A DNA stretch of 64,000 bases, taken from Candidatus Sungiibacteriota bacterium (GTDB taxonomy: Bacteria; Patescibacteriota; Minisyncoccia; Sungbacterales; JACQCQ01). This document shows, piece by piece, positions 4,342 through 61,602 of this stretch; position 1 is the first letter of the stretch, and every line of letters starts with the position of its first letter. The notes under the pieces were generated by a model. That model made no database searches. It had not been told where the DNA came from and saw only the letters and a list, made by a program, of their open reading frames with translations. The stretch is from the NCBI GenBank assembly GCA_016201505.1, contig JACQCQ010000002.1:76750-140749 (forward strand), given 5' to 3'. The position numbers were made by a program, and so were the translations under genes.

Positions 4342-4344
4342 TGC

Positions 4345-15765: not shown

Positions 15766-16347
15766 GAATCCCGTTAGAAGCCGCGATCGCATACACGGGG
15801 TACAATGGTATGAAGCTCCTCAACATGAATAGTTTAACTCGAGCGATAACGCGAATGATCGCGATCTGCTTCTAACGGGATGAATCCCGTTAGAAGCCGC
15901 GATCGCATACACGGGGTACAATGGTATGAAGCTCCTCAACATCCTCAACATGAATAGTTTAACTCGAGCGATAGCGCGGATGATCGCGATCCCGCTACCA
16001 CAAATCCTTCTTGGATCTGGCTACGGGACAAGCATACTATGACAGATGTATTATTAACTACGACTCGCCCCGTAGTCACCGAGTCTATGAGGTGTACTCA
16101 CGGGGTCTGCTTCTAACGGGATGAATCCCGTTAGAAGCCGCGATCGCGAAAACCAATCTTTCCGAGAGTTTATTTTAATACTTAATGTTAGGCAGACTCC
16201 GCGTTTGATCGCGATCCCGCTACCACAAATCCTCCATGGATTTGGCTACGGGACTAGAGAGCTATGACAGGCTTACTATTAACTACGGCTCGCCCCGTAG
16301 TCACCGAGCACGTGAGGTGTACTACTGGGGTCTGCTTCTAAACGGGA
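15766..16347. mobile_element. array of three MITE-like units bounded by the inverted termini GAATCCCGTTAGAAGCCGCGATCGC … GCGATC(T/C)GCTTCTAACGGGAT
   Basis: Unit junctions form 45-bp palindromes (ctgcttctaacgggatgaatcccgttagaagccgcgatcgc). Units 1 and 2 share a 5' module. Units 2 and 3 share a 140-nt 3' module (gatcgcgatcccgctaccacaaatcc…). A solo copy lies at 58884–58994. Confidence 0.6.
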
Positions 16348-31039: not shown

Positions 31040-32152
31040 ATGGCACGCATTGTCCTGCATATTGATATGGATGCTTTCTTTGCTTCGGTGGAGGAGCGCT
31101 ATAATCCGCAGTTTCGCGGCCGGCCGTTAGTCGTGGGTGCTGATCCCAAGGGCGGTCAAGGGCGAGGGGTTGTTTCAACTTGTAATTATCTGGCGCGGAA
31201 GTATGGCATCAGGTCTGCCATGCCGATTTCAAAAGCTTGGAGTCTCGCCGAAGCCGCACAGCGCCGCGGCGAACCGGCAACCATTTTTGTTGAAGCCAGT
31301 TACGAAGCCTATGCAGAAATTTCGCGCCGTATCATGGATTTTTTACGAACGCAGGCGGCAGGATTTGAGTCCGGCGGGATTGATGAGGCCTATCTGGAAC
31401 TAAGAATTAAGAATAAGGAATTGGGAATTAAGGCAACTGACTGGATAGAAGCCGAAAAGCTGGCGCAAAAAATAAAGTTACATATCAAAAAAACTGAAGG
31501 GCTGACGGCCTCGGTCGGCATCGGTCCGAATAAATTAATTGCTAAAATCGCCTCCGATTTTAAAAAGCCCGATGGACTGATGGTGGTGCGACCCCCGGAA
31601 GTTATTGAATTTTTAGCCCCTCTTTCAATTCGAGTTATACCCGGTATCGGACCCAAAGCAGAAATTGACTTGAATAAAAATGGCATCAAACTGATCGGCG
31701 ACTTGCAGAAGTTATCGGAGGCCGAACTCTATGATACCTTCGGCGATTGGGGGTTGTGGCTTGCCCGAAATGCGCGGGGTGAGAGCGACAGCCCCGTATC
31801 TGATGAGGGCGAGATAAAATCCATCGGCGAGCAGGCAACCTTTGAGACCGACACGTTGAATCCGGGGGCCCTGCTTGATAGGCTAGATAAGCTTTGCTCT
31901 CACGTATTCAAGCGCTTTCGCCACTCCGAGTTTAATACCTTTCGCCAAGTTACCATTACCGTGCGGTTTTTTGATTTCATAACCCGGACGCGCTCGAAGA
32001 CTCTCCCTAAAGATGAAAACTCCAGCCTCATCTTAAAACGCGAGGTCATCCTGAGCTTTCTGCCATTCCTGGATGATCGTGAAAATCCCAAACGAAAAAG
32101 GATCCGGCTCCTCGGCGTGCGTATAGAGAAGTTCGGCCGGACGAGTAAATAA
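31040..32152 (+). CDS. dinB: DNA polymerase IV (Y-family)
   Basis: 'IVLHIDMDAFFASVEE' is the canonical DinB N-terminus. Confidence 0.85.
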   Translation: MARIVLHIDMDAFFASVEERYNPQFRGRPLVVGADPKGGQGRGVVSTCNYLARKYGIRSAMPISKAWSLAEAAQRRGEPATIFVEASYEAYAEISRRIMDFLRTQAAGFESGGIDEAYLELRIKNKELGIKATDWIEAEKLAQKIKLHIKKTEGLTASVGIGPNKLIAKIASDFKKPDGLMVVRPPEVIEFLAPLSIRVIPGIGPKAEIDLNKNGIKLIGDLQKLSEAELYDTFGDWGLWLARNARGESDSPVSDEGEIKSIGEQATFETDTLNPGALLDRLDKLCSHVFKRFRHSEFNTFRQVTITVRFFDFITRTRSKTLPKDENSSLILKREVILSFLPFLDDRENPKRKRIRLLGVRIEKFGRTSK

Positions 32153-42270: not shown

Positions 42271-43320
42271 ATGTTGCAGCCTATTAAGACACAATTGAAA
42301 CTTAAAGAAACTTCACAAGACCTGCTGAAGCATATTGAAAATAAGCGCGTGCGGGAGGTTTTGGAGAAGCGTTTTGGATTGAAAACCGGAGATAAGAAAA
42401 CGCTGGAAGCCATTGGGAAAGAGTATGGCATTACGCGTGAACGAGTCCGCCAAATTGAAGCCGATGGTCTTCGTGCGCTGGTTCTACCCGCAGTCTATTC
42501 GACGGCTGATTTGGTATTTAAAGCATTACGCGAACACATTGAAGAGCATGGCGGCGTGGCAGCCGAGCATAATTTGCTGTTTAGCCTGGCGGATGCTAAA
42601 TCGCATGCGCATGCCACCTTTTTACTGACCGTCGGCAAACCTTTTTCCAAGAAACAGGAAACCGACCGCGCTCATCCAACCTGGTATACTGATAAATCAG
42701 CGCATGACGTGCTGGAGAAAGTTTTAGACGGCGTCTATCGTGACCTCGAGATAAAGAAAGTGCCGGTGAGAAAGGAGGCTCTCATCGCCCTGTTTGCCAA
42801 AGAGGCAGAAAAAGTTCTGGGTCATCGTCCCAAAGATCATGTCCTCTTAAATTATCTTGGGGCGGCCAAATTGATCGGCGAAAATCCTTACGGAGAGTTC
42901 GGCCTTATTTCCTGGCCGACCATCCGACCCAAAGGTGTTCGCGATAAGGCTTATATGGTTTTGCAAAAGTCCGCCAAACCCATGCATTTTCGCGCAGTAG
43001 CCGAAGCCATTAATAAAATGAATTGGGCTAAAAAGGCGGCGCATCCCCAGACGGTGCATAACGAATTGATTAAGGCGCAAGACCGGTTTGTCTTGGTCGG
43101 CCGCGGACTGTATGCCTTGCGGGAATGGGGGTATCTACCGGGCACCGTCGCCGATGTGGTCAAGGGAATAATCAATGAGGCGGGCAAGCCCCTGGGCCGT
43201 GAGGAAATTGTTTCGCGGGTTCTCGCTAAACGATTCGTTAAAGAAAACACGATCTTGCTGAATTTGCAGAATCGCAATCTATTTACCAAAGAACCCGACG
43301 GAAAATATTTCGTCGCCTGA
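42271..43320 (+). CDS. sigma-70 region 4 (HTH) domain-containing protein
   Basis: 'TLEAIGKEYGITRERVRQIEADGLRAL' is a canonical sigma region 4.2 sequence. The C-terminal 250 aa are of unknown function. Confidence 0.55.
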   Translation: MLQPIKTQLKLKETSQDLLKHIENKRVREVLEKRFGLKTGDKKTLEAIGKEYGITRERVRQIEADGLRALVLPAVYSTADLVFKALREHIEEHGGVAAEHNLLFSLADAKSHAHATFLLTVGKPFSKKQETDRAHPTWYTDKSAHDVLEKVLDGVYRDLEIKKVPVRKEALIALFAKEAEKVLGHRPKDHVLLNYLGAAKLIGENPYGEFGLISWPTIRPKGVRDKAYMVLQKSAKPMHFRAVAEAINKMNWAKKAAHPQTVHNELIKAQDRFVLVGRGLYALREWGYLPGTVADVVKGIINEAGKPLGREEIVSRVLAKRFVKENTILLNLQNRNLFTKEPDGKYFVA

Positions 43321-43395
43321 AGTTGACTACAGACTACTGTCTACAGTCTACGGCGCAAGCGGTAGTCAGTAGACTGTCAGTGGTAGTCAGTCAGT
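43321..43395. repeat. imperfect palindromic repeat element (gactacag / gtctacagtctac / gcggtagtcagtag modules)
   Basis: The same 13- and 14-mers recur at 52221–52305, inside a 23S rRNA insertion. Confidence 0.7.
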
Positions 43396-43414: not shown

Positions 43415-44887
43415 ATGCAGATTCTTTTAGAAAATTTTGGGATAGTCTATACCGTAGCTGCCAATAGCTGGTGGTTTATTTTGCCGGCATTTTTTCTGTA
43501 TCTGGCCGCGGAAGCTCACAAATATTCTCTGATTGCGGAAAAAATAAAAGAAACAAAATGGCTGTTGCTTGAGATTAAAGTACCGCGGGAAATTTTAAAA
43601 TCACCCGAGGCCATGGAGCGCGTATTTGCGGGCCTCCACGGGCCCTACGATCCGCCGGAAAAATTTAAAGAATATTATTTGGAGCCAAAAATCCGCTTGT
43701 GGTATAACTTTGAAATTGCCGGCCAAGCCGGCGATATTCGGTTTTATGCCTACGTGCCGGTCAAGTGGCGCAATCTGGTCGAAGCCCAGATGTACGCCCA
43801 GTATCCAGACATCTCGATTGCCGAAGCCAAAGATTACACTGCGTCCGTCCCCGATGACATTCCGAATGCTGATTATGATATGTGGGGCATGGAGTTGACT
43901 CTGGCGCGGGACATGTATTATCCGATTTTAACCTATAAGGAGTTTAAAAGTTTGGCGGAGCCGAATGCTACGAAAGACAATATCGGTGAGGCCTTAAAGA
44001 TTGACCCGCTCTCGGCGTTTGCCGAAAGCCTGGCGAAACTCCACCCCGGCGAGCAAATTTGGTTTCAGTTGCTCGCCCGTCCCTGCGGCAAGCCGGGCCA
44101 GGGTCCGAATGACAATTGGGCGGAAAAAGGTCAGGAACTGGTGGATAAACTGGCCGGACGGGAAAAACCAAAGCCAAAACCCTGGTACGCCTCACTGGTT
44201 GAAATCATCGCCGCATTTTTTGAGGAAGGCGGTGAACTGATTAAAGAGGGCATCAAGCCCTTATCGTCTTCCGGCGAGCGTGGACTCGGCCGCCTGATGG
44301 CTCTACCCGTGAAAGAAGAAAAAAAAGTTGATCTGTCCGAGCTCATACATAAGACTCAAGGCGAAAAGGATGTGATGTCCGCCGTTGAGGAGAAAATTTC
44401 GAAACTGGGCTATGAGACGGTTGCGCGCGTCATCTATGTGGCGAGACGCGATGTTTTTGATATGGCGACCGTCGGATCATTGTTTGGCATGGTCAAGCAA
44501 TTTAACACCAACCATTTAAATGCTTTTAAGCCGAATGGCGATACGATTACCAAAAAAAAGGATTACTTCTGGGGTTTTGTCACTTCCGAGACGCACCAAA
44601 ACCGCATTAAACAGGGCCTAATCTACTCATACAAAAAGCGCAGTCTCTTCTGGGACTTAAAACCGATTGTGCCGTTTTTGCCGAAATCTCCGCTGCCGGC
44701 GCTGCAGGCGGCTTTGTACCACTTCATCCCTAATGCCATGGAGTATTCGCGTTCCAAACCCTTTGTTTTAAACACCGAAGAAATGGCAACATTGTTTCAT
44801 TTTCCGGGTTCGACCGTTTCTTCGCCCTCAATGCCCAGAATCCAGGCCAAAGCCTCGGAACCGCCGATTAATTTACCCACCGGGTAG
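43415..44887 (+). CDS. hypothetical membrane protein (N-terminal TM), partner of VirD4-like ATPase
   Basis: 490 aa with no recognisable motif. It is co-oriented with the downstream ATPase. Confidence 0.4.
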   Translation: MQILLENFGIVYTVAANSWWFILPAFFLYLAAEAHKYSLIAEKIKETKWLLLEIKVPREILKSPEAMERVFAGLHGPYDPPEKFKEYYLEPKIRLWYNFEIAGQAGDIRFYAYVPVKWRNLVEAQMYAQYPDISIAEAKDYTASVPDDIPNADYDMWGMELTLARDMYYPILTYKEFKSLAEPNATKDNIGEALKIDPLSAFAESLAKLHPGEQIWFQLLARPCGKPGQGPNDNWAEKGQELVDKLAGREKPKPKPWYASLVEIIAAFFEEGGELIKEGIKPLSSSGERGLGRLMALPVKEEKKVDLSELIHKTQGEKDVMSAVEEKISKLGYETVARVIYVARRDVFDMATVGSLFGMVKQFNTNHLNAFKPNGDTITKKKDYFWGFVTSETHQNRIKQGLIYSYKKRSLFWDLKPIVPFLPKSPLPALQAALYHFIPNAMEYSRSKPFVLNTEEMATLFHFPGSTVSSPSMPRIQAKASEPPINLPTG

Positions 44888-44891
44888 AAGT

Positions 44892-45290
44892 ATGAATAAA
44901 GAATTAAGAATAATGGAAAACCGAAAAATAGAAAATTTTAAAGATCTAGAGGCCCGGAAGAAAGGTCAGGCTTTTGTACTCAATATCTACCAGGTTACCA
45001 AACAATTTCCAAAAGAAGAGCAGTTCGGTCTTATTGCTCAGCTTCGGCGGGCTGGTGTCTCCATTACTTCTAATATTGCAGAGGGATTTAGTCGAAGATC
45101 ATATCGAGAAAAATCTCAGTTCTATGCCATCGCATTAGGATCTTTAACCGAGGTCCAAAGCCAGCTTCTAAGTGCACGTGATATTGGATATTTGGACCCA
45201 GATATCAATAACGCTTTGGATAGCGCAGGTGTCGAAATTCATAAAATAATTAACGGACTTATTAAGTCGTCCTTTATTCTTTATTCTTGA
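44892..45290 (+). CDS. four-helix-bundle protein (23S rRNA intervening-sequence protein family)
   Basis: 132 aa. 'LIAQLRRAGVSITSNIAEGFSRRSYREKSQFYAIALGSLTEVQSQL' is characteristic of this family. Confidence 0.65.
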   Translation: MNKELRIMENRKIENFKDLEARKKGQAFVLNIYQVTKQFPKEEQFGLIAQLRRAGVSITSNIAEGFSRRSYREKSQFYAIALGSLTEVQSQLLSARDIGYLDPDINNALDSAGVEIHKIINGLIKSSFILYS

Positions 45291-45305
45291 TTCTTTATTC
45301 TCAGA

Positions 45306-47318
45306 ATGAACGACGTAACCTACTTTGGCGAAACGAACTTTAGAAACGAGCGGAGGCGCTTCGGGATTAAGCGCGCCGACCGGAGACGGCATATGTACAT
45401 CATCGGGAAAACCGGCACCGGCAAAACAACCCTGCTCGACAATATGACCGTCCAGGATATCGCGCATGGCAATGGCGTCGCCGTGATTGACCCGCACGGC
45501 GAGTACGCCGAACGCATGCTCGCTTTCGTGCCGCAAAACCGCATCCAGGACGTTGTCTACTTTAATCCGGCCGATCTTGATTATCCTTTCGGATTCAATA
45601 TGTTAGAGCAGCCAAAAGCCGAAATGCGCCACTTTGTGGCTTCCGGTTTGATGTCGGTTTTCAAAAAACTCTGGGTTGATGCCTGGTCGGCGCGCATGGA
45701 GTATTTTCTCTCCAATTCAATTCTCTCGCATCTGGAAATGCCGGACTCGACGTTGATGGGAGTGCATCGGATTTTTGGCGATAAGGCCTATCGAAGATCA
45801 CTGGTCTTACAGCTGCAGGATCCGGTTTTAAAGGCCTTTTGGGAAAACGAGTTCGACAAGCTTCCAGAGCAATTTATGCGCGAGGCGGTGGCCGCGATTC
45901 AAAATAAAGTCGGCCAGTTTATTGCCAATCCCTTAATCCGCAACATTATCGGTCAACCCCGTTCCACCTTCAACATTCGCGAAATCATGGATTCAAAAAA
46001 GATTTTAATCGCGAATCTTGCCAAGGGCCGCATCGGCGAAGAAAACTCAAAATTGCTCGGCGCCATGCTGGTCACGCGAATTTATCTTGCCGCCATGTCG
46101 CGGGTTGACGTACCCGAAGATGCCCGCGAGGATTTTTATGTCTATGTGGATGAGTTTCAGAACTTCGCCACCGAATCGTTTGCCTCGATCCTTTCCGAGG
46201 CGCGCAAATACCGCCTCAATTTAACGCTCGCCAATCAATACATGGCGCAGCTGGTTGATGATAAAACAAAGTCCGCCGTGCTCCGCGACGCCATTATCGG
46301 CAACGTCGGCAGCATGATTTCGTTTCGCATCGGCGCGGAAGACGCGGAAGTTTTAGAAAAAGAATTTGCGCCCGAGTTTTTAATTCAGGATTTCGTAAAC
46401 TTGGGATTCGCCAACGTCTATCTGAAATTAATGATCGATAACGTGGCTTCGCGGCCATTCTCGGCAGTTACTCTCGCGCCGATTGACACACCAACCATTA
46501 ATTACGCCAAAGAAATTATTGATTACTCGCGGCTGACCTACGGCCGGTCCCGCGAAGTAGTTGATCAGTCAATCCGGGACTGGGGTGGCTTTGCGATGAA
46601 ATCAGGGGCTTCAGTTTTTTCTGGGGTTCCCGTAGCGCCTCGCCCCGTGCCACACGTATCCGCGCGGGATTCATCTAACGCTTCGGTAATCAACCAGGCG
46701 CCCACCGCCGCCGTTTCCCCGCCAGCAGTCGCATCTGTAGCACGCCCCATCGTTTCAAAAGATGAAAATGGCCAGAAAATGTATCGCGCGACCTGCGCGA
46801 TTGATGGACAAGAAATTTGGGTGCCGTTTCAGCCTGACGGCCGGCGGCCGGTGTATTGCAGTGAACATTTAAGCCAGATTCAGCGTGGGCAAGGCCAAAG
46901 TCAGAACCAAGAATCAAAAAATATGAATCAGGGTTCCGTTGCGACGAGCGCTCTAATGCCAGCAGGAGAAGGAGAGAAGAAACGAAAACGCCGCCGCAAT
47001 CGTAATCGCAATAGACATCGCGAAGGAGCGGCGAGTTCCCATACCCAGGCTTTTCAGTCTGCCCCGGTCGTTCGCACATCAGATCAAACGATCTCGCTCC
47101 GCGACCTTTCACCAAAAAATGACTCAAGCCTGAATACCTTGCGAAAAGATCATGAGCCGCGTCCTCCGATGTCGCCCAAAAAACCAGTTGACCTTGGCGA
47201 GCTTCGCAAGGTGTTGCAAGAGACGATCACACGCTCTGCTCCCCAAACCCCACCGCCGGATTCTCAAAACGAACGAGAGTCAGGCACATTAAAACCGGGG
47301 GAGTCAATTAAGTTTTAA
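45306..47318 (+). CDS. VirD4/TraD/TraG-like P-loop ATPase (type IV secretion DNA-binding domain family, DUF87-like) with basic disordered C-terminal tail
   Basis: Walker A is 'IIGKTGTGKTTLL' and Walker B is 'YVYVDEFQNF'. A 'LTLANQYMAQL' block is present. The C-terminal 200 aa are low-complexity and K/R-rich. Confidence 0.6.
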   Translation: MNDVTYFGETNFRNERRRFGIKRADRRRHMYIIGKTGTGKTTLLDNMTVQDIAHGNGVAVIDPHGEYAERMLAFVPQNRIQDVVYFNPADLDYPFGFNMLEQPKAEMRHFVASGLMSVFKKLWVDAWSARMEYFLSNSILSHLEMPDSTLMGVHRIFGDKAYRRSLVLQLQDPVLKAFWENEFDKLPEQFMREAVAAIQNKVGQFIANPLIRNIIGQPRSTFNIREIMDSKKILIANLAKGRIGEENSKLLGAMLVTRIYLAAMSRVDVPEDAREDFYVYVDEFQNFATESFASILSEARKYRLNLTLANQYMAQLVDDKTKSAVLRDAIIGNVGSMISFRIGAEDAEVLEKEFAPEFLIQDFVNLGFANVYLKLMIDNVASRPFSAVTLAPIDTPTINYAKEIIDYSRLTYGRSREVVDQSIRDWGGFAMKSGASVFSGVPVAPRPVPHVSARDSSNASVINQAPTAAVSPPAVASVARPIVSKDENGQKMYRATCAIDGQEIWVPFQPDGRRPVYCSEHLSQIQRGQGQSQNQESKNMNQGSVATSALMPAGEGEKKRKRRRNRNRNRHREGAASSHTQAFQSAPVVRTSDQTISLRDLSPKNDSSLNTLRKDHEPRPPMSPKKPVDLGELRKVLQETITRSAPQTPPPDSQNERESGTLKPGESIKF

Positions 47319-47385: not shown

Positions 47386-47520
47386 ATGTGCGTTCGATGC
47401 GGCCTGAATAAAGGCGAAGTGACCTGTATCTGCGGCGACTTTCTTTGCAAAGACTGTATGAGAGATGAGTGCGTCGAATCCGATGGTGAACACCATGCGG
47501 TGATAGCGTGTCTTTCGTAA
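47386..47520 (+). CDS. 44-aa Cys-rich mini-protein (MCVRCGLNKGEVTCICGDFLCKDCMRDECVESDGEHHAVIACLS)
   Basis: It follows a perfect RBS (AAAGGAGG, 6 nt spacer) and contains 8 Cys. Confidence 0.45.
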   Translation: MCVRCGLNKGEVTCICGDFLCKDCMRDECVESDGEHHAVIACLS

Positions 47521-47534
47521 GCGCTATCATTGAA

Positions 47535-47666
47535 ATGCTCTATCCGTGCGGCAATGCGGATTGCAATAGCAAGGTTTCGTCGCTCAACTTCCTTTCTTGC
47601 CCACGGTGCTTTACGCACGTCTGTTCACTGAAGTGCCTCGAGAATCACAACTGTCCGGAGGCCTAG
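47535..47666 (+). CDS. 43-aa Cys-rich mini-protein (MLYPCGNADCNSKVSSLNFLSCPRCFTHVCSLKCLENHNCPEA), zinc-ribbon/HIT-finger-like
   Basis: It sits in tandem 14 nt after the previous mini-ORF. It has 8 Cys and 2 His. A hairpin terminator follows at 47675–47706. Confidence 0.4.
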   Translation: MLYPCGNADCNSKVSSLNFLSCPRCFTHVCSLKCLENHNCPEA

Positions 47667-47706: not shown

Positions 47707-48028
47707 TTGACTTTTAATATAAATAGTGTATTATTGCTTAACTAAAGAGCGCCGCGGTTCTTGCATACTTCCGCGCCGCTTCCGCTGGACGTTGATCCGA
47801 AGGAGGAGTTCCGGTTCTAGTTCTTTGGGCTCGCAGACCCCAACATAGTCTTCAAATTCACCAGTGAATGGAATCAAATCAATCTTAATTCATGATTCTT
47901 TATTCTTGATTCTAGTCAGTGGTGAGATCAAAGACTCTTAGCTATTAAATTTATAGAAGAGGCAATACACGATGAGACAACTGTATTCTTTGCAACACGC
48001 GGGTACTGATCATCTAATCTCATAAATC

Positions 48029-49689: not shown

Positions 49690-50438
49690 GCGGGTTACGA
49701 GTCTATCCAAGAGTCAGCTTGACTTGCATTACGCTACTATAGTAGTATTTCTGAAGCTAGATTAAGGTAATTATTCGAAGCTATTTGATCAAATGCAAAC
49801 GTACTTCCAATTGAATACCACTGCGGCCTCGGATGAAAGAACATAAGCCCCTCTCGTAGGGAGACTTAGGTAGATGAGGTCGCCGGAAGGCGATTTTTCG
49901 TTCGAACGTCTTTTTAAAAACATTTGATTTCCCACCGAGAAATCAGATTCGCCACTCTCCTCGCGATCGCTTCGCGAACCGTGGTCGCTTCGTCGAGTGA
50001 GCGTTCTAAAAAGATATTCTTCACTTGAGCTTCGTAGGAAAGGTCGCTTCGCTCCCCACATTCAAGAAGTTGGAGATGACGACTAGTTAACTAGAAAACT
50101 AGAAAACTAATCGGTGTCTCTGAAAACGTTTTCGTACGCTTACGGAAAAAGTAGGAGGCAAGATTTTTGACATAAGGCTAATAATTGCAAAAGGGTAATA
50201 AACCGATGCTTCGCATCGGAATGTCTAATTTTCAATTTCTAATTTCTAAACTTTTTACGCCACATCGCTTCATTAGAAATTAGGTATTAGGAATTTGGAA
50301 TTTCCGATGCGGAGCATCGGAAAATTGTATTTTCAGTAAACTCTTTGGAGTTTATTGAAGCGTGATTCGATACAAATTTGTTATGTACCTGAATTGTGGA
50401 ATGTAGAAGTAACTAGACGAGAAGAGGGGAGACACTCT

Positions 50439-50675: not shown

Positions 50676-51133
50676 CGTTCATCATGGGGAAGGTCAGTAC
50701 GACTTCCCCTCCACAATTCAGGTACATACAAACATAAGTCGAATCGCAAATGGTTCGGCAGGCTCACCACAAGTGAATCTGTCGAACTTTCTCTCGATGA
50801 TTCTTGAGACTCGTAATTACATTACTTGTCCCGAGCGAAGTCGAGGGATCTCACTCGTTCTCTGATGAATGTCAGAGGACAAGAAAATAAAAAGCGGTTA
50901 TTAAGGGCGCATGGTGGATGCCTTGGCTTTAAACAGCGATGAAGGACGTAGCGTGCTTGCGATAAGCATCGGGGAGGTGGCGAGCAACCTTTGATCCGGT
51001 GATGTCCGAATGGGGAAACCCTAGGGGAGTAATGTTCCCTAACCCGTCGTGTAATAGCGATGTGGAGTCAACCTGGTGAAGTGAAACATCTCAGTAACCA
51101 GAGGAAAAGAAAACAAGTTGCTTCGCAACTTTT

Positions 51134-51203
51134 ATCAGCGAATAGCGAATCCCGTACGAATAAGCGAATTCGTTTATTCGAAAAGATTCGTAATTCGTTG
51201 ATG
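51134..51203 (+). repeat. IVS hairpin element copy A (71 nt)
   Basis: The sequence is atcagcgaatagcgaatcccgtacgaataagcgaattcgtttattcgaaaagattcgtaattcgttgatga. It is identical to the copy at 55191–55261. Confidence 0.75.
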
Positions 51204-51610
51204 ATCGAGCGCAGTGAACATTCCGTCAGTAGCGGCGAGCGAACGCGGAACAGCCTAGAGGAATCAGTTTGCTAGTTTACTAGTTCGCTGGTTCCAGTTG
51301 TAAGTTTAGTTCGTAAAAGAGCAATCTTTTGAAGAGTGTAAAAATTAAGACTTCGTTAGGAGAATGGTCCTGGAACGGCCAACCACAGAAGGTAATAGTC
51401 CTGTACACGAAAACGGTCTTATACTCTTGGAACTTTACTTGAGTACTGCCCAGTATGACGACTGGGTAGGAAGCAGGGAGAACTAGTCTCCCAAGGCTAA
51501 ATATGTTTAAAGACCGATAGTGAACCAGTACCGTGAGGGAAAGGTGAAAAGCAGCCCGGTGAGGGCGGTGAAATAGTACCTGAAACCATGTGCTTACAAG
51601 GAGTCGGAGC

Positions 51611-52110
51611 TCGCTTCGCTGACGAAGCGGTAGATTCAAAATCTTAAAACTGCAAAATCAAATATTTCCTTTTGTGTATCTGAATTGAAAAAATAAGGAG
51701 GTGTCAATGGCATACCCCCAAGATGAAATCGCACGCCTGCGGGAAATGCTGCGGCTTGATCAGATGTCGCCGGAAGAGCTGGTACGGTTTCTTAAACTGT
51801 TTTGGGAGATTACGGAGAGCAAGGTTCTCGAGCGCGGCGCCGAAGGCAAGGATGTCTTTAACGCCGGGTTGGCTGAATGGCTGCTCACGATTGCTGTAGT
51901 TGCCATCGTGCGGTCTTTTATTGATCGCGCTGACAAGAGAGCGATTGTCCGAACCCTCAAAGCCTCGTTACCGGCGAAGATTTGGGAAGTTTGCCGGCCG
52001 CTTTGCGAGCCCTTGCTCTCAATTCCCGGGGAGTGATCCGTCAGCCGACGGACTCCCCGTTCAATTCAGATACATAAAAATAGTTTTGAATTTTGTAGTT
52101 TAGTTTTTAA
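51611..52110 (+). mobile_element. helix-25 intervening sequence carrying a 110-aa ORF, flanked by perfect 12-bp inverted repeat gtatctgaattg / caattcagatac
   Basis: The insertion follows 'cttacaaggagtcggagc', the classic H25 IVS site. The inverted repeats lie at 51682–51693 and 52060–52071. Confidence 0.6.
51707..52036 (+). CDS. hypothetical 110-aa protein encoded inside 23S rRNA IVS (MAYPQDEIARLREML…)
   Basis: It has a strong RBS (AAGGAGG, 5 nt spacer). It is followed by the hairpin gatccgtcagccgacggactcccc. No known homing-endonuclease motif. Confidence 0.45.
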   Translation: MAYPQDEIARLREMLRLDQMSPEELVRFLKLFWEITESKVLERGAEGKDVFNAGLAEWLLTIAVVAIVRSFIDRADKRAIVRTLKASLPAKIWEVCRPLCEPLLSIPGE

Positions 52111-52389
52111 ATTTAGCGACGCGTCAGCGGAGCGAGTAACGGCATGCCTATTGAAGAATGAGCCAACGAGTGTATGGAGATTGCTTGCTTAACCCCGCCC
52201 TTTGCGCAGTAGCGCAAAAGGCGGAACTGACAGTCTACAGTCTACCGACTACAGCAGATGTTGTTGTTCATGCGGTAGTCAGTAGTCCGTGGTCAGTAGT
52301 CCGCCCCTTGTTAGTGAACAAAGGACGGGGGGAGGCGCAGGGAAACCGAGTGTTAACAGCGCGTAAGCACCTCACTTTGTTCGGTGCCT

Positions 52390-52461
52390 ATCAGCGAATA
52401 TCGAATCCAAAACGAATAAACGAATTCGTTTATTCGAAAAAGATTTGTAATTCGTTGATGA
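52390..52461 (+). repeat. IVS hairpin element copy B (~90% identical to A)
   Basis: atcagcgaatatcgaatccaaaacgaataaacgaattcgtttattcgaaaaagatttgtaattcgttgatga. Confidence 0.7.
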
Positions 52462-53030
52462 CCGAGCGAAGCGAGGCTGCATGTAGTCTTCATACGACCC
52501 GAAACCAAGTGAGCTACCCATGGGCAGGGTGAACTTTGAGTAACATCAAAGGGAGGCCCGAACCGGTTGGTCGTACAACGCCTTCGGATGACCTGTGGGT
52601 TGGAGTGAAAAGCTAATCGAACTTGGAAATAGCTGGTTCTCTTCGAAATAGCTTTAGGGCTAGCGTCAAATCACACCGTAATGGAGGTAGAGCACTGGAT
52701 GGACTGTAATGGGGCAACCCAGGCAGTCCAATCAAACTCCGAATGCCGTTACGCGTTATTTTGGCAGTCAGCAGGCGGGGGCTAAGCTCCGTCGTGCAAG
52801 AGGGAAACAGCCCAGACCGCCGATTAAGGTCCCTAAATCAATGCTAAGTGTATAAGGCGGTGGAATTTTTAAAACAGCGAGGAGGTTGGCTTAGAAGCAG
52901 CCATCCTTTAAAGAGTGCGTAACAGCTCACTCGTCAAAAGATTCTGCGCCACAAATGTAGCGGGGCTAAGCATTGTACCGAAGTCGCGGGTTGCGCGCTT
53001 CACTTTTGTTCAGCGCGCTCATCATCGAAT

Positions 53031-53116
53031 AGCGAATCACGAACGAATAAACGAATCACCATAACCGTATTCGTATATTCGCAGCAAATTCGTTATTCGC
53101 TGATAGAGCGCCGAGC
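53031..53116 (+). repeat. helix-45 IVS hairpin (diverged palindromic variant)
   Basis: The sequence is atcatcgaatagcgaatcacgaacgaataaacgaat…attcgttattcgctgatag. It lies at the canonical H45 IVS position, between 'gaagtcgcgggttgcg' and 'gagcgccgagcagc'. Confidence 0.6.
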
Positions 53117-54034
53117 AGCAGCGAGGCGCGTAACGGTAGAAGAGCATTTGCATCAGCAGTGAAGGAGGACCCGCGAGGGCCTCTGGAGCGGTGCGAAGAG
53201 AGAATGTTGGCACTAGTAACCGCAAGTTAGGTGAGAATCCTAACCGCCGAAAGTCCAAGGTTTCCTTGGCAATGCTAATCAGCTAAGGGTTAGTCGGTCC
53301 TAAGGGAATGGTGAAAACCGCACCCGATGGATACACGGTTAATATTCCGTGACTCGAGTTTTGATCGATGGCGGGACGGAGCGTTGTACATTCTATGGAT
53401 TATTGGATTTCCATTTCTGTTATGAGGAAAGCGCGTAGGCAAATCCGCGCGCTGGGTTAGACCCGCTTCCAAGTAATGGGATAATGCGTTTCTTCGGATT
53501 CGCAAATAGAAAGGAGCACGCTTCCCAGAAAAACGTCTAAGATTATCTTGACTCGAACCGTACCGCAAACCGACACAGGTGGACTAGTGGAGAACACTAA
53601 GGCGAACGGGTGAGACCTCGTTAAGGAACTCGGCAAAAAAGCGGCCGTAAGTTCGCAATAAGGCCTGCCTCATTGAGGCTGATAGAAGGAAAGAAAGCAC
53701 TGCACAGTGTTGGTTTTTGAATTTGTGTTTTGTGCAACGTATTCTCGAAAAGCGTTTGCATTTGTTCCAGCGACAAATGCAACTCGCCAAGCTCGCAAAA
53801 ACTTTTTGTTTCGACAAAAAGACCAAGCTTTTCGCTCGCTTGAGCGTTTTCTTAAATACGTTTGCACCGATATGGATTCTTGATCGAACACTGTGCAGTG
53901 CAAAAGAGAAAGGGCAGATTTTTGCTGATGCAAAAATCTGAAACTAGAAAACTAGAGCCGCGAAAGCGGCGTAACTAGAAAACTATAGTTGTAACTCTGA
54001 ATTGCGGAGTTAAATAGTTCGCTGGGGAAAAGGT

Positions 54035-54130
54035 ATGAACTCGCAAGGAGAAGTAACGCCACTGGCGTTGATGGGACTTGCGACCGTTTTTGCCATATAT
54101 CTTCTCTGCCAGCTCATCTGGGCGGGATAG
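54035..54130 (+). CDS. 31-aa hydrophobic mini-peptide MNSQGEVTPLALMGLATVFAIYLLCQLIWAG
   Basis: An RBS-like 'ggggaaaagg' precedes it. It lies inside the rRNA insertion. Confidence 0.3.
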   Translation: MNSQGEVTPLALMGLATVFAIYLLCQLIWAG

Positions 54131-54142
54131 TGGAGGATATGA

Positions 54143-54271
54143 ATGTCCAGGCTGGCGGCATATCCGCTGTTCCTTGTCTGTTGGACTCCGTTCATGATTG
54201 TGATCGGGTTCATCATCGGGATCATGATCGAGCGATCGGGTCGGATTCTTGCGGCCGAGGAGGAGGTATGA
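54143..54271 (+). CDS. 42-aa single-TM mini-peptide MSRLAAYPLFLVCWTPFMIVIGFIIGIMIERSGRILAAEEEV
   Basis: The RBS 'tggagga' precedes it. Its stop overlaps the next start (ATGA). Confidence 0.35.
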   Translation: MSRLAAYPLFLVCWTPFMIVIGFIIGIMIERSGRILAAEEEV

Positions 54272-54390
54272 GAACAGCCATCGGTTTTATGATCACTATT
54301 GGGATCATGGCTGCTGTTGTGATCATCGATCGGTGGTGCAAGCGGCGCCTGCCGATGCGCGGCATCTTCGGGCCGTATCGGCAGGCATAA
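54268..54390 (+). CDS. 40-aa single-TM mini-peptide MRTAIGFMITIGIMAAVVIIDRWCKRRLPMRGIFGPYRQA (paralog of previous)
   Basis: The RBS 'gaggaggagg' precedes it. It shares the 'IGF.I.IGIM' core with the upstream peptide. The hairpin gatccgtcagttgacggagactcccc follows. Confidence 0.35.
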   Translation: MRTAIGFMITIGIMAAVVIIDRWCKRRLPMRGIFGPYRQA

Positions 54391-55190
54391 GGAGACGAGG
54401 GAGTGCGATCCGTCAGTTGACGGAGACTCCCCCAACCCTACTAAAAATGTAGGGCCGCAATTCAGGGTTACAACAGGTCTAAGTTTAGGCGCGATTGCGC
54501 GAGCGAGCGGTAAGTTCTTAAAGAAAGGAGAAGTACGCGGACCGAAGAGGATCTGCCGAATCGAGGGCAGCACATGTGCATACCGGAGTAGTCGACGGTC
54601 ATTCGGCAAGACCTTACGCCCCTCCGCATAGTTCTTTGATCGCTCGTGCAAAAAAATATGGAGGGCGCAGACCTTCGGGTCTCGGTATAGGCAGGTAGCC
54701 TGCCCCTCCGCCATTCGCCAACTGGTGAAGCCAACTGGTGAAGCCAACTGGTGAACTCGAGCAGAGAGTCTCCCGCCAGGGTCTCTTCTCTGTAAAAGAT
54801 GGGCGGTCCCGCCGCCCGTTACTCGAGCACCCCAGCGGCCTCCCTAGCCCGGGGCCGCTGGGGTTCGAAAATCACTATGTCGGGCGCGACGTGAGCTCTC
54901 CTGGTAGGGGATTGCGTCGACTCACCCGGCAGAACGCGGCGGCGGTTCCCCCCGGAGCCGCCGCCGTCGTAAACACTTTTCTCTTATTTTTCTCCTCGAA
55001 ATTCGAAGTCGGATTTCGATCCTTCTATCAGCCTCTTTGAGGCCGCAGCGAAAGATTCTCTGGCGACTGTTTACCAAAAACACAGGTCCCTGCTAAACAC
55101 GTAAGTGGATGTATAGGGGCTGACGCCTGACCAATGCGAGAAGGTTAAAGATTGTGGTTGCTTCGCTCTTGCTTCGTAACATCAGCGAAT

Positions 55191-55261
55191 AGCGAATCCC
55201 GTACGAATAAGCGAATTCGTTTATTCGAAAAGATTCGTAATTCGTTGATGAAAAGCTGTGG
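55191..55261 (+). repeat. IVS hairpin element copy C (identical to copy A)
   Basis: The 71-nt sequence is identical to 51134–51203. Confidence 0.75.
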
Positions 55262-55329
55262 AGCGTGAGCGGAGCAGCTAACGGTCCCAAGCCCTCGTCA
55301 ATGTCAGCGATAACTATAAGTAACGATTG

Positions 55330-56140
55330 TAGTTATAAAATTTGGCTATATGTTCCCAATTTGTCTGCGAGCGTTAGCGAGTGGCTAACAAATCGCAATC
55401 CCGTGGCCTTACAGTCACGAGACAAAACAAATTCGGGAAACCCGAAGTCACGCCGCGCAATACGAAAGTGTTGGTTGCGGGGGAAGGCTTTGGGGACTGG
55501 AAAACCCGCGAATGCAGAAGTACTTCAATACCACGTAGTATTGAAGTAACAATCTTCTGCCGATTCGTGAAGGTAAGATGGATGTATTCCGCTCGCAATA
55601 TGAACGGATGTATCCGCCGAAGCCTTGGCGAAGGCGGACAATCAGCAGGAAAGATTCTAATTGGTAAAAATTAGAAAATCCTCAGAGACTACACGCCAAA
55701 CTCTTCAATGCACTCGAGTCTGTCGAGCTAATTGGATAGATGATATAGTCCGAACTCTATGGTGACATAGAGAGTTGACCCGAGAGAGGGTCAGAGTAAC
55801 ACTAAATGAATCGTTCTAAGGTGAATAACACTGCCTTAGTAAAATCTAGCTATATCGGTGAACACCTTACACTTTAATACTTTAAAGTATTAAAGTGTAA
55901 GACAATACCGAGGCAACCCCGCCAAAATTTTGCACGAGCAAAACTTAGGCGGGTGAGTCCGTAGAGACTACACGCTAGACTCCAATCCGCAGTTGGCGGA
56001 GGAGAAGATATAGTCCGGCCTCTATGGCGACATAGAGAGATGCAGAGAAATCGTGCATCCGGATTCATGATTCATAATTCTTGCTTGCCCTTCCGTAGCT
56101 CTAGAGAGCAAAGGAGGGATTCATGATTCTAGTAACAATT
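55330..56140 (+). mobile_element. ~0.8-kb ORF-less insertion (group I intron-like) at the 23S 1917–1931 (I-CeuI site) region
   Basis: It interrupts 'taactataa | …gcgtaattccttgtcgggtaag'. It contains an internal ~100-nt duplication (55680–55800 versus 55958–56060). It also contains the 36-bp perfect palindrome cttacactttaatactttaaagtattaaagtgtaag (55866–55901). Confidence 0.45.
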
Positions 56141-56739
56141 CGAGCGTAATTCCTTGTCGGGTAAGTTCCGACGTGCACGAAAGGCGTAACGACTGGAGAA
56201 CTGTCTCAACGAGGTGCCCGGTGAAAATACAATATCGGTGAAGATGCCGATTACCCACAGATAGACGAAAAGACCCCGGGAGCTTTACTGCAGCTTGATA
56301 TTGGCAATGAATACTTTATGCGTAGCATAGATGGGAGACTTTGAAGTCGTGGTTTCGGCCATGATGGAGTCGCCAGTGAAATACCATTCTTAAAGAATTC
56401 TTTGTCTAACTTGTAGAGACGAAACTCTATGCAGACAGTGTCTGGCGGGCAGTTTAAGTGGGGCACTTGCCTCCCAAAAAGTAATGGAGGCGTTTATTAA
56501 GGTTGGCTAGCGCCGGATGGAAATCGGCGTCGTCCCGTAAAGGGAAATGCCAGCTTGACTGCAAGGCGGGTATGCCGCGCAGGTGCGAAAGCAGAACTTA
56601 GTGATCCGATGGCTATGGTTGTTTAGTTTACTAGTTTCGGTCTTTATTGACCTACTGGTTTTCTAGTTTTCGAACTAGTTAACTAGAAAACTGGTGAACT
56701 GATCAATTTCTTGCTAGAACAAGGCCAAAGCTCATCAGC

Positions 56740-56770
<31 letters not shown>

Positions 56771-56903
56771 GCTTCCAAGAGTTCATATCGACGAAGCGGT
56801 TCGGCACCTCGATGTCGGCTCGGCTTATCCTGGAGGTGGAGAAGCTTCCAAGGGTTTGGCTGTTCGCCAATTAAAAAGTCACGCGAGCTGGGTTCAAACC
56901 GTC

Positions 56904-57741
56904 AACAAAAGAACCCGAAAATGACATCGAAACATTCAACAAGTTTTTGATAGGAGCTTGTTTGAAACACACGGCGGCCCCTGGTAGCAATGCCGGGGAG
57001 CGAAACCCGTAGAATCCCAAGGGGGTCCGGGTAAGAAAACCGACTCATATCGATGAAATCCACGTATGCATTCAACCTGTCATATGTTAGGATAATATCG
57101 AGGGAAGTCGTGTATGTTGCAATCGTTAACGCAAAATCAAAGGGCATATATTGCAGGTTTTCTTGATGGAGATGGAAGCATTTATGTGCGAGCAAAACCA
57201 AACCCTACTTATCGGTTTGGCTTTCAAATTGCTCCATATATAGTATTTTTCCAGTCACAATCTAGTCAGGAAAGATTTGGGGAGATATGCAAGTTGATTA
57301 GCGTGGGACATTTACGCATTCGAAGTGACGGTATTCTTGAGTACATCATAAATCGTATTGATGAAATCAAGATGTTGCTGGAATGTGTTCGTCCCTTCGC
57401 AATTCTCAAAAGGCGACAGATAGATTTGATGTTGAAAATAATTGAATCAAAGTCGCAAGTAGAGAACGAAGACGATTTTGAGAAACTTCTTCAACTAGTA
57501 AATTCTTATCGAGAATTAAACTATTCTAAGAAGAGAAAGCAACGTTCATTGACCCCGTAGAGACTTGTCGTGAAAGCGGCAGAGTAATTCAGAAATGATT
57601 TGCTAACACGTCGGTCACCCATTAAATGTAGATACTGTTTAATGGGTTGGTGGTATAGTCCAATCCCTCTAGTAATAGAGGAAGGTTAAGCATTTAGTAA
57701 CCTTAATTCTTGACTCTAAATTCTTAATTCTAGTAAACAGC
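56904..57741 (+). mobile_element. group I-type intron at 23S position 2593 (I-CreI homing site) encoding a LAGLIDADG endonuclease
   Basis: The exon junction is 'gggttcaaaccgtc | gtgagacaggttgg', which corresponds to the E. coli sequence AACGTC^GTGAGACAG. Confidence 0.7.
57114..57560 (+). CDS. single-motif LAGLIDADG homing endonuclease, I-CreI-like
   Basis: The motif is 'YIAGFLDGDGSIYVRAKPNPTYRFGFQ'. Overall similarity extends to I-CreI ('LAGFVDGDGSIIAQIKPNQSYKFKHQ…LVLKIIE' versus 'IDLMLKIIE'). Confidence 0.8.
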   Translation: MLQSLTQNQRAYIAGFLDGDGSIYVRAKPNPTYRFGFQIAPYIVFFQSQSSQERFGEICKLISVGHLRIRSDGILEYIINRIDEIKMLLECVRPFAILKRRQIDLMLKIIESKSQVENEDDFEKLLQLVNSYRELNYSKKRKQRSLTP

Positions 57742-57883
57742 GTGAGACAGGTTGGTCTCCTATCTTCTGTGGGCGTAGAAATTTGAGAGGGCTTCTGGAC
57801 AGTACGAGAGGACCTTCAGGAACAAACCTCTGGTGTACCAGCTGTTCCGCCAGGAGCATCGCTGGGTAGCTATGTTTGGTTGT

Positions 57884-57914
<31 letters not shown>

Positions 57915-58294
57915 ACGCCTCAAGATAAGATTTCATAGATCCCTGAGAGATTATCAGGTTGATAGGGTGCAGGTGTACATGGAGTAATCCATTCAGCCGA
58001 GCACTACTAATAGATCATCACCACTTTTTATTTTCCTTTGCCCGCCGAAGCGTTATGCGACGGCAGGACGGTGAGAATAATACAATTCTTGCCCGCCTAA
58101 GTTTTTCGTTAGAAAAATTTTGGCGGGGTTTATTACCCTTTTGCAGTTATTAGCTTTGAATGTGCGTTTCTCCAAAATAAAACTTGCCGACCTCGAACGC
58201 GCCGGACTCGGCCGCGAGGTCTGAGAGGGAAAGGAGAGCCTCTAAGCTCTTATCCTACCCTCTCTCTAACACCGAGTTTCGTATTTTAAAATTC

Positions 58295-58883: not shown

Positions 58884-58994
58884 GATCCCGTTAGAAGCCG
58901 CGATCGTCGAATGATAGGATAAAATATAACTGATTTAAATATCATTAACACTACGCAGATTCCGCGCAGAATCGCGATCTGCTTCTAACGGGAT
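58884..58994. mobile_element. solo MITE-like element of the 15766–16347 family
   Basis: atcccgttagaagccgcgatcg…(60 nt)…gcgatctgcttctaacgggat. Its 3' terminus ends at the ATG of the next gene. Confidence 0.6.
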
Positions 58995-59778
58995 GGACTG
59001 GCGTACCGCTCGACAATTGACCGTGATTTTTATCGCCGTTTTGGTTGTCGGCGGCATTCTTTTTTTTCTCACCTACGGCTATTTCCATCAGCCGGCATCG
59101 TGTACTGATAACAAGAAAAATCAGGGAGAAGAAGAAGTTGATTGCGGCGGCCCCTGCGAGCCGTGCGCCTTCAAGCATCAAAAGCCAGCAGAAGTTTTTT
59201 TCGCCCGAGTTTTGCCGTTGCGGCCGGGGAACTATGATGTCGTGGCTGAAATTCAAAATCCCAATGATCATTTAGCAGCGAATCCCTTAGCCTATCGGGT
59301 GCATGTGTTTGATGATCACGGAGTTGAAATTGCAACGCGGGAAAATCTAACCTTCGCCTATCCCAGTGACAAGATCTATATCGTTGAAAGCAACTTTCTA
59401 ACCGAGCGCAAACCAGTTCACGCGAGCCTTGAAGTCATTGACCAGGCAACTTTGTGGACATTCACCAATGACTTGCGTCCGGAATTTCAAATTGGCAATA
59501 AAACCTATGTAGTTTCGGCCGACAATGAGGTCAAAGTGACGGCTGATGTGATGAGTCGAGCTGATTTTGGGTTTAATCAAGTTGAAATCCGGGTGGCCCT
59601 GCTCGACAACGCGGGAAATGTCGTAGGGGCGGCTAAAACCATTCTGGATCATGTGAGTCCCCGCCAGTCTCGGCGGGTTGAATTTACCTGGCCGCAGGCG
59701 CCACAAGATTTGGTGGCTCACGTCGACATTGAAGCCAAAGCCAACGGCCTCGATAAAACCAATGTCTTTCTGCCGTAG
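58993..59778 (+). CDS. hypothetical membrane-anchored/secreted protein
   Basis: 261 aa with an N-terminal TM helix and a Cys-rich 'CGGPCEPCAF' segment. Confidence 0.45.
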   Translation: MDWRTARQLTVIFIAVLVVGGILFFLTYGYFHQPASCTDNKKNQGEEEVDCGGPCEPCAFKHQKPAEVFFARVLPLRPGNYDVVAEIQNPNDHLAANPLAYRVHVFDDHGVEIATRENLTFAYPSDKIYIVESNFLTERKPVHASLEVIDQATLWTFTNDLRPEFQIGNKTYVVSADNEVKVTADVMSRADFGFNQVEIRVALLDNAGNVVGAAKTILDHVSPRQSRRVEFTWPQAPQDLVAHVDIEAKANGLDKTNVFLP

Positions 59779-61081: not shown

Positions 61082-61540
61082 ATGACTATCTATCTTGGGG
61101 CAGACCATCGCGGCTTTGGTTTAAAAGAGCATGTCAAGGCTCAATTAACTGAGGCCGGCTATGACGTTCGCGACATCGGCGCTGCGCAGATAGACGTAGC
61201 CGATGATTATCCTGATTTTGCGATTATAGCCCTCGAGGCCCTTAGTCAGGATTTAAAAAATAGAGCCATTTTAATTTGCGGTTCCGGGCATGGCATGGAT
61301 ATGATTGCCAATAAATTTTCCGGCGTTCGGGCGGCGCTTTGTTTTAATACAGCGGTGGCTAAACAATCGCGCGAGCATGAGGATGCCAATGTGTTAGTTT
61401 TGGCTTCCGACTGGGTAAAAGAACAAGAGGCCTGGAATATCATCGAGATCTGGCTTGAGACAGAGTATGGGAAGGCGGAAAGAAATGAAAGAAGACTTCG
61501 AAAAATAAAGGAGATTGAGGAAAAACATTTTAAAGAGTAA
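61082..61540 (+). CDS. rpiB: ribose-5-phosphate isomerase B
   Basis: 'MTIYLGADHRGFGLKEHV' matches the RpiB/LacAB family. Confidence 0.8.
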   Translation: MTIYLGADHRGFGLKEHVKAQLTEAGYDVRDIGAAQIDVADDYPDFAIIALEALSQDLKNRAILICGSGHGMDMIANKFSGVRAALCFNTAVAKQSREHEDANVLVLASDWVKEQEAWNIIEIWLETEYGKAERNERRLRKIKEIEEKHFKE

Positions 61541-61602
61541 TCGCCAATATACGAATCTACACGAAATATACCAATATACAAATTCGTATATTCGTGATTA
61601 CT

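Follow-up and report, generated by a model that had tools for sequence, protein, structure and literature searches.

The locus studied here lies in a window of 64,000 nucleotides (nt), by which we mean the whole stretch of DNA that was analysed (contig JACQCQ010000002.1 of Candidatus Sungiibacteriota bacterium, positions 76,750 to 140,749). In the segment 43415-47318 of this window, an earlier note made from the sequence alone had described three open reading frames (ORFs), and all three were confirmed on the + strand (Table 1). They encode a protein with a single N-terminal membrane helix (hereafter P1), a small four-helix-bundle (4HB) protein, and a P-loop ATPase that resembles the type IV coupling proteins (T4CPs). 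P1 and the ATPase belong to an operon that is conserved in Patescibacteria. The 4HB gene, together with the inverted-repeat arms at its ends, is a discrete cassette of the intervening-sequence (IVS) type, which occupies the mRNA spacer between the two other genes and belongs to a large family in bacteria of the candidate phyla radiation (CPR).

The small protein belongs to the four-helix-bundle family 23S_rRNA_IVP, in line with the earlier note, by its matches to PF05635 (1.9e-34; score 118.5 bits, cut-off 33.8) and TIGR02436 (1.5e-32; score 112.1 bits, cut-off 24). The motif R-x3-S-x3-N-x2-E described for this family (PMC3936711) is present as RAGVSITSNIAE at residues 53-64, and the nearest solved relative is the pentameric XCC0516 (2gsc), with a profile match of 1.8e-27. 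The ORF starts 4 nt past the P1 stop codon and ends 15 nt ahead of the ATPase start codon. The whole cassette measures about 407 nt and is bounded by arms of 27 nt that are made of GAATNAA heptads and are 85% complementary, and the 20-bp core stem (44894-44913 with 45281-45300) is present in both the minimum-free-energy and the centroid folds. The 'ttattctttattcttgattctttattc' run at the 3' end of the gene, which had been noticed as low-complexity sequence, is real; it is the 3' arm of this terminal inverted repeat and not mere low complexity. By searching the window with the arm motif, 7 matches were obtained versus 0.01 expected. The start codon (ATG) and the stop codons (TAA, TGA) are embedded in the heptad units. 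The scan for promoters and terminators gave no promoter-like excess over shuffled sequence in the region and no listed site in the spacer-proximal parts of the cassette.

Table 1. Genes, cassette arms and heptad repeats of the locus and of the rRNA operon, in positions of the window.
Feature	Position	Strand	Remarks
HTH gene	42271-43320	+	349 aa; Sigma70_r4 + HARE-HTH (Pfam matches); conserved upstream neighbour of P1
ORF-less heptad hairpin, HTH-to-P1 spacer	43323-43392	+	GACTACN units; -39.6 kcal/mol, z = -4.0
P1	43415-44887	+	490 aa; N-terminal hydrophobic helix and soluble alpha/beta body
4HB ORF (S23p / 23S_rRNA_IVP / TIGR02436)	44892-45290	+	132 aa
Cassette 5' arm	44894-44920	+	GAATAAA, GAATTAA, GAATAAT heptads; starts 2 nt into the 4HB start codon
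Cassette 3' arm	45274-45300	+	TTATTCT, TTATTCT, TGATTCT, TTATTC; spans the 4HB stop codon
T4CP-like P-loop ATPase	45306-47318	+	670 aa; NTPase and helical domain at residues 1-430
Degenerate GAAT-type hairpin or arm remnant 3' of the ATPase	47857-47925	+	fold z = -3.4
ORF-less GCGAATN-heptad hairpin, helix-45 (IVS) site of 23S	53013-53106	+	between E. coli 1163 and 1186 (exon map)
Solo 3'-arm-like heptads (GATTCATGATTCTAGTAA)	56118-56135	+	3' end of the 23S insertion near E. coli 1931
Second solo heptad copy	57720-57736	+	ends the 23S insertion near E. coli 2593

The same architecture was observed in a survey of 80 further metagenome loci, which hold the nearest homologues of the 4HB protein and include 77 unique cassettes. 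Of the 77 cassettes, 65 have a strong terminal inverted repeat, and 63 of these 65 are built on GAAT or GAAG heptads. After shuffling, such a repeat was found in only 1 of 77. The medians are 432 nt for the element, 28 nt for the arm and 133 aa for the ORF. Of the scorable loci, 65 of 69 have a co-oriented upstream neighbour and 60 of 68 a co-oriented downstream one, and the gaps to the neighbours are mostly shorter than 40 nt. Other CPR homologues, all of them with arms of the GAAT type, likewise occupy tight spacers of unrelated operons and are co-oriented there. A Uhrbacteria genome has a cassette between a LOG-like gene and PfkB, a Levybacteria cassette has a pilin gene on one side and the gene of a giant Laminin_G protein on the other, and another CPR cassette was found in a pilin locus of a type IV secretion system (T4SS). 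The cassette thus belongs to a large and regular CPR family that is co-oriented in tight operon spacers. None of the 80 loci lies in or adjacent to rRNA, so the statement that this family is otherwise encoded inside 23S rRNA intervening sequences is wrong for this subfamily. A further 4HB cassette (L011, 9130-9560), with TAGAAAA/TTTTCTA arms, has its ORF split into two overlapping frames and is probably a decaying copy.

Synteny was compared across 80 reference-genome loci with distant orthologues and in close relatives, and 84 orthologous loci were fetched. A 4HB gene of the window type is present at the P1-ATPase junction in none of the 80 genome loci, and a 4HB gene of any type is missing in 79 of them. 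The exception is L001 (Portnoybacteria), whose junction spacer contains another 4HB gene, which is divergent in sequence (PF05635, 2.9e-19) and flanked by arms of its own. In most orthologous loci the P1 stop codon and the ATPase start codon are 5-50 nt apart. The cassette is also missing in four of five close relatives; the junction spacers of L081-L084, in which the ATPase is 80-84% identical, measure 27-109 nt and contain no ORF. The same strain was met in a second sample, as a 100%-identical contig, and there too the cassette is present. Hence the 4HB gene is normally missing from this junction, rather than always present as an integral operon member would be, which agrees with the insertion suspected in the earlier note.

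The insertion is old. The closest 4HB homologue (66% amino-acid identity) was found at the identical junction position in L086 to L088. In the tree of concatenated HTH, P1 and ATPase sequences, the window, L081, L084 and L086 form one clade with 100% support, and the window and L081 are sisters with 98% bootstrap, although L081 has no 4HB ORF. This pattern calls for two losses of the ORF or for two gains at one nucleotide position, and losses are favoured. The 83-nt junction spacer of L081 is a stable hairpin (z = -4.5) that aligns arm-for-arm with the termini of the cassette; this hairpin opens with TATGAATAAA directly after the stop codon, as in the cassette. Between the window and L086, synonymous divergence (dS) is saturated, so the dN/dS ratio of the 4HB gene is unusable and nonsynonymous divergence (dN) is used alone, with values of 0.23 for 4HB, 0.23 for HTH and 0.34 for P1. 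These comparisons point to an ORF that is old, vertically inherited and constrained, with no recent jump. The earlier suggestion that a mobile cassette derived from an rRNA IVS had jumped into the operon can thus be kept as regards an inserted cassette of the IVS type. An origin in rRNA has no evidence, and a recent jump disagrees with the homologue at the same junction elsewhere, the saturated dS and a dN equal to that of the neighbouring host gene (HTH).

Hairpins of similar design but without an ORF were observed in several places. In scattered lineages (L003, L006, L010, L013, L024, L033, L076, L081, L082 and L084), the P1-ATPase junction contains hairpins of 78-250 nt, which consist of 3-5 tandem 7-nt units, and the unit is lineage-specific (for example, ACGAATN, AACTAAG, CAAAATG or GGAGAAT). 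While the arm unit varies between elements, the arms within any one element are always a matching pair. The HTH-to-P1 spacer is occupied by such a hairpin in the window and in the relatives L081, L082 and L084. A heptad 'flavour' shared by the 4HB cassette and the ORF-less hairpins of the same genome, as in recognition in trans, was considered and rejected, since the units differ both in the window and in L011. Another heptad hairpin of the window (ATACGAAT units, 61536-61602, z = -5.8) fills the 53-nt spacer between the co-oriented genes 61082-61540 and 61594-62271.

The heptad motif is common to the cassette and the rRNA operon, as had been seen before, and the motifs quoted at that time from the 23S gene end insertions at about E. 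coli positions 1931 and 2593. These 3'-end motifs were rejected as hairpin arms because they have no 5' partner and their folds are not significant (z = -0.7 and +0.4). Four near-identical GCGAATN hairpins are located in short 23S insertions in four different helices (51134-51195, 52388-52467, 53013-53106 and 55185-55245), with z = -6 to -6.7 and no ORF in any of them, and the 23S gene of the window as a whole contains no 4HB ORF. The link between the cassette and the rRNA operon is real as a shared repeat family, and it does not imply a direction of descent. The 23S gene itself (50889-57950, about 7.1 kb) is interrupted by at least 9 insertions when compared with E. coli. In Rfam its end is placed at 57015; the last exon (E. 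coli 2589-2803) was located at 57736-57949 and is preceded by a group I intron bearing a LAGLIDADG ORF (57114-57560). About 570 nt 5' of the 23S gene, a very stable 134-nt hairpin with TTTCTAA heptads (50203-50320, -55.9 kcal/mol, z = -9.7), which yields spurious sub-threshold miRNA matches in Rfam, could be a processing stem of the rRNA operon.

By comparing the cassette with known systems, its architecture was found to match the classical 23S IVS with an S23p ORF in Coxiella burnetii and Leptospira (PMC4990558). The IVS of Coxiella has 428 nt, a 28-bp terminal stem, which is cut by RNase III, and three tandem GACAGAT heptamers before the S23p start codon (PMC4990558). The two share the protein family PF05635, the size (about 407 nt here and 432 nt as the survey median), a terminal stem of 20-28 bp (a 20-bp core in 27-nt arms in the window), tandem terminal heptamers next to the start codon, the sense orientation in the host transcript and the absence of a transposase. 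On the other hand, the window cassette lies between two protein genes and does not replace the loop of an rRNA helix (h9, h25, h45). Its ORF is intact and, by the dN of 0.23 against a saturated dS, constrained, whereas that of Coxiella is decaying and probably untranslated, and cleavage by RNase III, which is known there, would hold for the window cassette by analogy. Insertions in CPR rRNA sometimes contain 23S_rRNA_IVP ORFs (PMC11270868), and 23S_rRNA_IVP genes are also known from cas operons, where they are wedged, for example, between cmr3 and cmr2 (PMC3936711). The latter resemble the window gene in their tight position between co-oriented genes of an unrelated operon; however, that position was read as a functional association with nucleases, and neither heptad stems nor a cassette were described. 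Furthermore, the 4HB protein weakly matches Avd of the diversity-generating retroelements (bAvd 2.3e-05, 25.3 against a cut-off of 40; DivGenRetAVD 24.4 against 80; phrog_3206 8e-10). The homology is distant, but the match is under the family cut-off, and no reverse transcriptase, template or variable repeat lies nearby. Finally, the heptad hairpins that have no ORF, both those of operon spacers and those of rRNA, resemble non-autonomous derivatives of the kind of miniature inverted-repeat transposable elements (MITEs) or repetitive extragenic palindromes (REPs), but their copies have no conserved sequence and share only the architecture of 3-5 tandem 7-nt units per arm, and no transposase partner is known for them.

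The host operon has the gene order secD-secF-HTH(Sigma70_r4 + HARE-HTH)-P1-ATPase in about 45 of the 80 reference-genome loci, and the HTH gene precedes P1 in these loci and in every close relative. This order is a conserved module of Patescibacteria. P1 and the ATPase adjoin in 53 of the 84 fetched loci, which supports the pairing proposed in the earlier note, and the pair is fused in some Bacillus phages. The N-terminal part of phrog_5156 (an 824-position profile) matches P1 and its positions 402-804 match the ATPase. With hhalign, the P1 profile matches residues 15-317 of gp156 of Bacillus phage G (825 aa) with 97.7% probability and E = 1.6e-12, and the C-terminal portion of gp156 is matched by the ATPase. 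Because of this fusion, P1 and the ATPase can be regarded as halves of a single machine. The neighbour of the fused gene, gp155 (L097, 2154-3803), is a TraG/VirB4-type P-loop ATPase, so phage G has two related ATPases side by side. The gene content of the window is of the housekeeping type throughout (SecA, SecDF, MurB, FtsW, DinB, EF-P, rRNA), and neither a relaxase nor any other T4SS gene was found in the window or in the syntenic loci, as had been stated for the pair. In L039, a 216-aa membrane protein with no family match, which is not a 4HB, is encoded between P1 and the ATPase (4246-4896).

P1 had been described as a 490-aa transmembrane protein; the ORF and its size are correct, but there is one moderately hydrophobic N-terminal helix followed by a soluble alpha/beta body, so the protein is not polytopic. 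A precomputed match to DUF8128 (PF26449), flagged as weak, exists for P1 and its orthologues, and the local copy of Pfam gave no match even at E = 1; no mention of DUF8128 was found in the literature. The AlphaFold2 (AF2) model of P1 has a predicted local distance difference test (pLDDT) score of 82, and all its top fold matches in the PDB are weak and of the TrwK/VirB4 type (E = 6e-4, TM 0.33). As a VirB4 N-terminal domain, P1 could not be recovered by sequence, since nothing was found by the Pfam scan at E = 1, by searching PDB sequences with a profile, or by tblastn against phages. The reading of P1 and the ATPase as a split VirB4-like protein, suggested by the model, is only a lead. Among the 3612 clusters matched by the P1 profile in 1.84 billion proteins, the best 150 matches are all stand-alone proteins and therefore give no new information on fusions.

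The ATPase contains the motifs reported for it, with Walker A (GKTGTGKT) at residues 34-41, Walker B with the DEFQNF block at residues 278-287 (YVYVDEFQNF), the basic run KKRKRRRNRNRNR at residues 558-570, and a low-complexity, basic and disordered tail of 240 residues. The remnant of a treble-clef zinc finger was located at residues 491-520 (46776-46865). In the window this zinc ribbon is degenerate (CAID...CSEH), while the L001 counterpart has CxxC...CxxC, and a KPGExIxF motif at the extreme C-terminus is kept across the homologues despite the disordered tail. Residues 7-29 are invariant across homologues, which confirms the start at 45306. No hydrophobic segment or N-terminal transmembrane domain was found, and Walker A begins as early as residue 34. 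In the profile searches suggested in the earlier note, the ATPase scored above the Pfam gathering cut-offs of TrwB_AAD_bind (35.9 vs 20.5), T4SS-DNA_transf (29 vs 20.1) and DUF87, the last limited to residues 27-102. It stayed far under the cut-offs of the NCBIfam T4CP models, the best being SXT_TraD with 51.7 bits against 366. The top Foldseek matches of its AF2 model (pLDDT 76.7) are DotL (2.9e-7) and TrwB (1e-5), with TM of 0.5-0.56, and Cag-beta; HerA (TM 0.41) and VirB4 rank under these coupling proteins, and neither the Pfam scan nor Foldseek gave a match to FtsK. Judged by its predicted fold, the ATPase is coupling-protein-like and not HerA- or FtsK-like, in agreement with the earlier assignment. 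With TrwB, DotL and Cag-beta it has in common an NTPase fold in which a helical insertion separates Walker A from Walker B, at TM of about 0.5. It differs from them in having no N-terminal transmembrane domain and no T4SS context, and in the additional zinc ribbon and basic tail. A role in a defence system was rejected, as only weak P-loop matches to HerA and mad8 were obtained.

The ATPase family is widespread, with more than 8000 matches and about 63% identity across Parcubacteria lineages. A second paralogue (34-43% identity) lies in tandem with or near the conserved copy in five Patescibacteria loci (L014, L029, L061, L067, L072). In Patescibacteria, 5,713 homologues of VirD4-type T4CPs have been reported, only 148 of them near virB4, and an exaptation of these proteins was considered possible (PMC12102498). 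The window ATPase is very probably one of the 5,713, and like the orphan T4CPs of that study it has no relaxase or T4SS genes nearby. The ATPase alone is therefore not new. On the other hand, the published account includes neither the obligate partner (putatively DUF8128) nor the synteny with secDF and HTH, and it mentions no fusion in phages, no zinc ribbon and no basic tail (PMC12102498). The minimal DNA-translocation modules to which the earlier note had compared the pair were not found as a published proposal for CPR bacteria; the literature only says that orphan T4CPs may be exapted (PMC12102498). For the P1-ATPase module, the simplest inference is a nucleic-acid translocase anchored in the membrane, judging from the fold, the zinc ribbon, the basic tail and the neighbouring HARE-HTH gene.

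A few further features of the window were recorded. Between the ATPase and EF-P, in a variable region, a 52-aa Cys-rich ORF (47508-47666) has a weak match to zf-HIT (E = 0.0013). In-frame runs of GAAT-type heptads are present inside two protein genes, DinB and SecA (31397-31428 and 27525-27542); the run inside DinB encodes ELRIKNKELGI just past the DEAYL motif, and that of SecA lies in the C-terminal region. An unrelated family of palindromic repeats (GCTTCTAACGGGATGAATCCCGTTAGAAGC) is intergenic, with copies at 15868-15897, 16109-16138 and about 58885-58995; a site 3' of the 5S gene is among those occupied.

We consider it rather likely that an old IVS-type 4HB cassette was inserted in the P1-ATPase spacer, is transcribed with the operon and is a member of a family of CPR spacer elements. 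In the mechanism that we propose, P1 provides the membrane helix and the alpha/beta body, and the ATPase is a TrwB/DotL-like NTPase without its own membrane domain. The cassette, without its own promoter or terminator, would be co-transcribed with the operon. The ORF fills the element, so that ribosomes could be handed over from P1 to 4HB and on to the ATPase, and polar damage in the host operon would thereby be kept small. In untranslated transcripts, the stem may fold and be cut by RNase III, as in the rRNA elements, and the messages of P1 and the ATPase would then separate. Moreover, cassettes may decay to ORF-less hairpins, as in the sister genome L081. That the 4HB protein binds the heptad stem or its nucleic acid is our working guess. 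A wider hypothesis, which is tentative and in our opinion doubtful, is that the heptad-stem 4HB cassettes and their ORF-less derivatives form one transcript-resident selfish class, which colonises all sites where a stem-loop that can be excised or translated is tolerated. It would mean that the rRNA IVS is a special case of a larger population in operon spacers, that the start and stop codons in the heptads and the filling ORF are adaptations that keep host operons translationally coupled, and that the 4HB protein is the maintenance or mobility factor of the element.

Several points weigh against an old inserted cassette that acts in this way. Neither a transposase nor a target-site duplication was found, nor any recent presence/absence polymorphism of the cassette, and the tree demands that the ORF disappeared twice or arose twice at one nucleotide position. 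The fold of the whole cassette is not better than that of shuffled sequences (z = -1.6), only the terminal stem being distinctive, and this stem is A/U-rich and has just 20 bp. Cleavage by RNase III, co-transcription and translation of the 4HB ORF are all inferred. Finally, hairpins with unrelated units recur at the P1-ATPase junction in many lineages, which could mean host selection and not a parasitic element. In such a case, the spacer would carry an intercistronic RNA hairpin that sets the P1:ATPase ratio via processing, stability or attenuation, and the 4HB ORF would act as a helper that binds RNA or be no more than a passenger. The unrelated hairpins at the junction, the occupied HTH-to-P1 spacer of the window and its relatives, and a count of about 6 of 53 P1-ATPase junctions with a hairpin versus about 12 in about 800 other spacers all speak for this explanation. 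However, the enrichment is a rough estimate, the 5-50 nt spacers of most orthologous loci have no hairpin, and the same type of cassette occurs in unrelated operons (sugar metabolism, pilins and others), so that we regard a host-selected hairpin as unlikely.

We regard it as very improbable that the machine of P1 and the ATPase includes the 4HB protein as an integral functional partner, such as an adaptor or a regulator. The gene is missing in by far the greater part of the orthologous loci, among them that of the sister genome, and its close homologues are found in unrelated operons, although its tight embedding and co-orientation, its retention in two lineages with a dN as low as that of the host neighbours, and the second, divergent 4HB at the same junction in L001 would fit a partner. 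We also disfavour a recent jump of an rRNA-resident IVS from the 23S gene of this genome, along the lines of the earlier note, and give it hardly any credence. The GAAT-type heptads that end two 23S insertions, follow the 5S gene and lie 3' of the ATPase, the ORF-less hairpins in four 23S helices with the helix-45 site among them, and the occasional 23S_rRNA_IVP ORFs in CPR rRNA insertions (PMC11270868) would be expected from it. Yet the rRNA of the window has no 4HB ORF and its hairpins are built on a different unit, GCGAATN; the orthologous cassette of L086 with its saturated dS argues for an old insertion, and none of the 80 nearest homologues is located in rRNA. The explanation by chance, in which A/T-rich low complexity flanks an ordinary small 4HB gene, agrees with the unremarkable fold of the whole cassette, but it is refuted by the excess of arm-motif matches in the window and by the terminal inverted repeats that shuffling of the homologous cassettes abolished in nearly every case. 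Taken with these alternatives, the old IVS-type cassette remains the reading that we prefer.

The new part of this finding is the IVS-type element in an mRNA spacer as a member of a large and regular CPR family, the ATPase being of a known orphan T4CP-like type. No description of heptad-bounded 4HB cassettes in mRNA was found in the literature. To our knowledge, neither a function nor a mechanism of mobility has been established for IVS elements and S23p proteins in more than 30 years, and work on them was almost only on rRNA. The IVS architecture is common in the spacers of CPR protein operons, where the ORF is constrained, unlike in Coxiella, and where ORF-less derivatives occur at the same sites. 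Furthermore, an orphan T4CP-like ATPase that is widespread in Patescibacteria gains a defined partner (P1, putatively DUF8128), a conserved neighbourhood (secDF, HTH) and a fused phage form. The cassettes thus provide a large comparative dataset and a testable model, according to which operon mRNAs would be cleaved by RNase III, ribosomes would be handed over through the filling ORF, and the 4HB protein may bind the stem.

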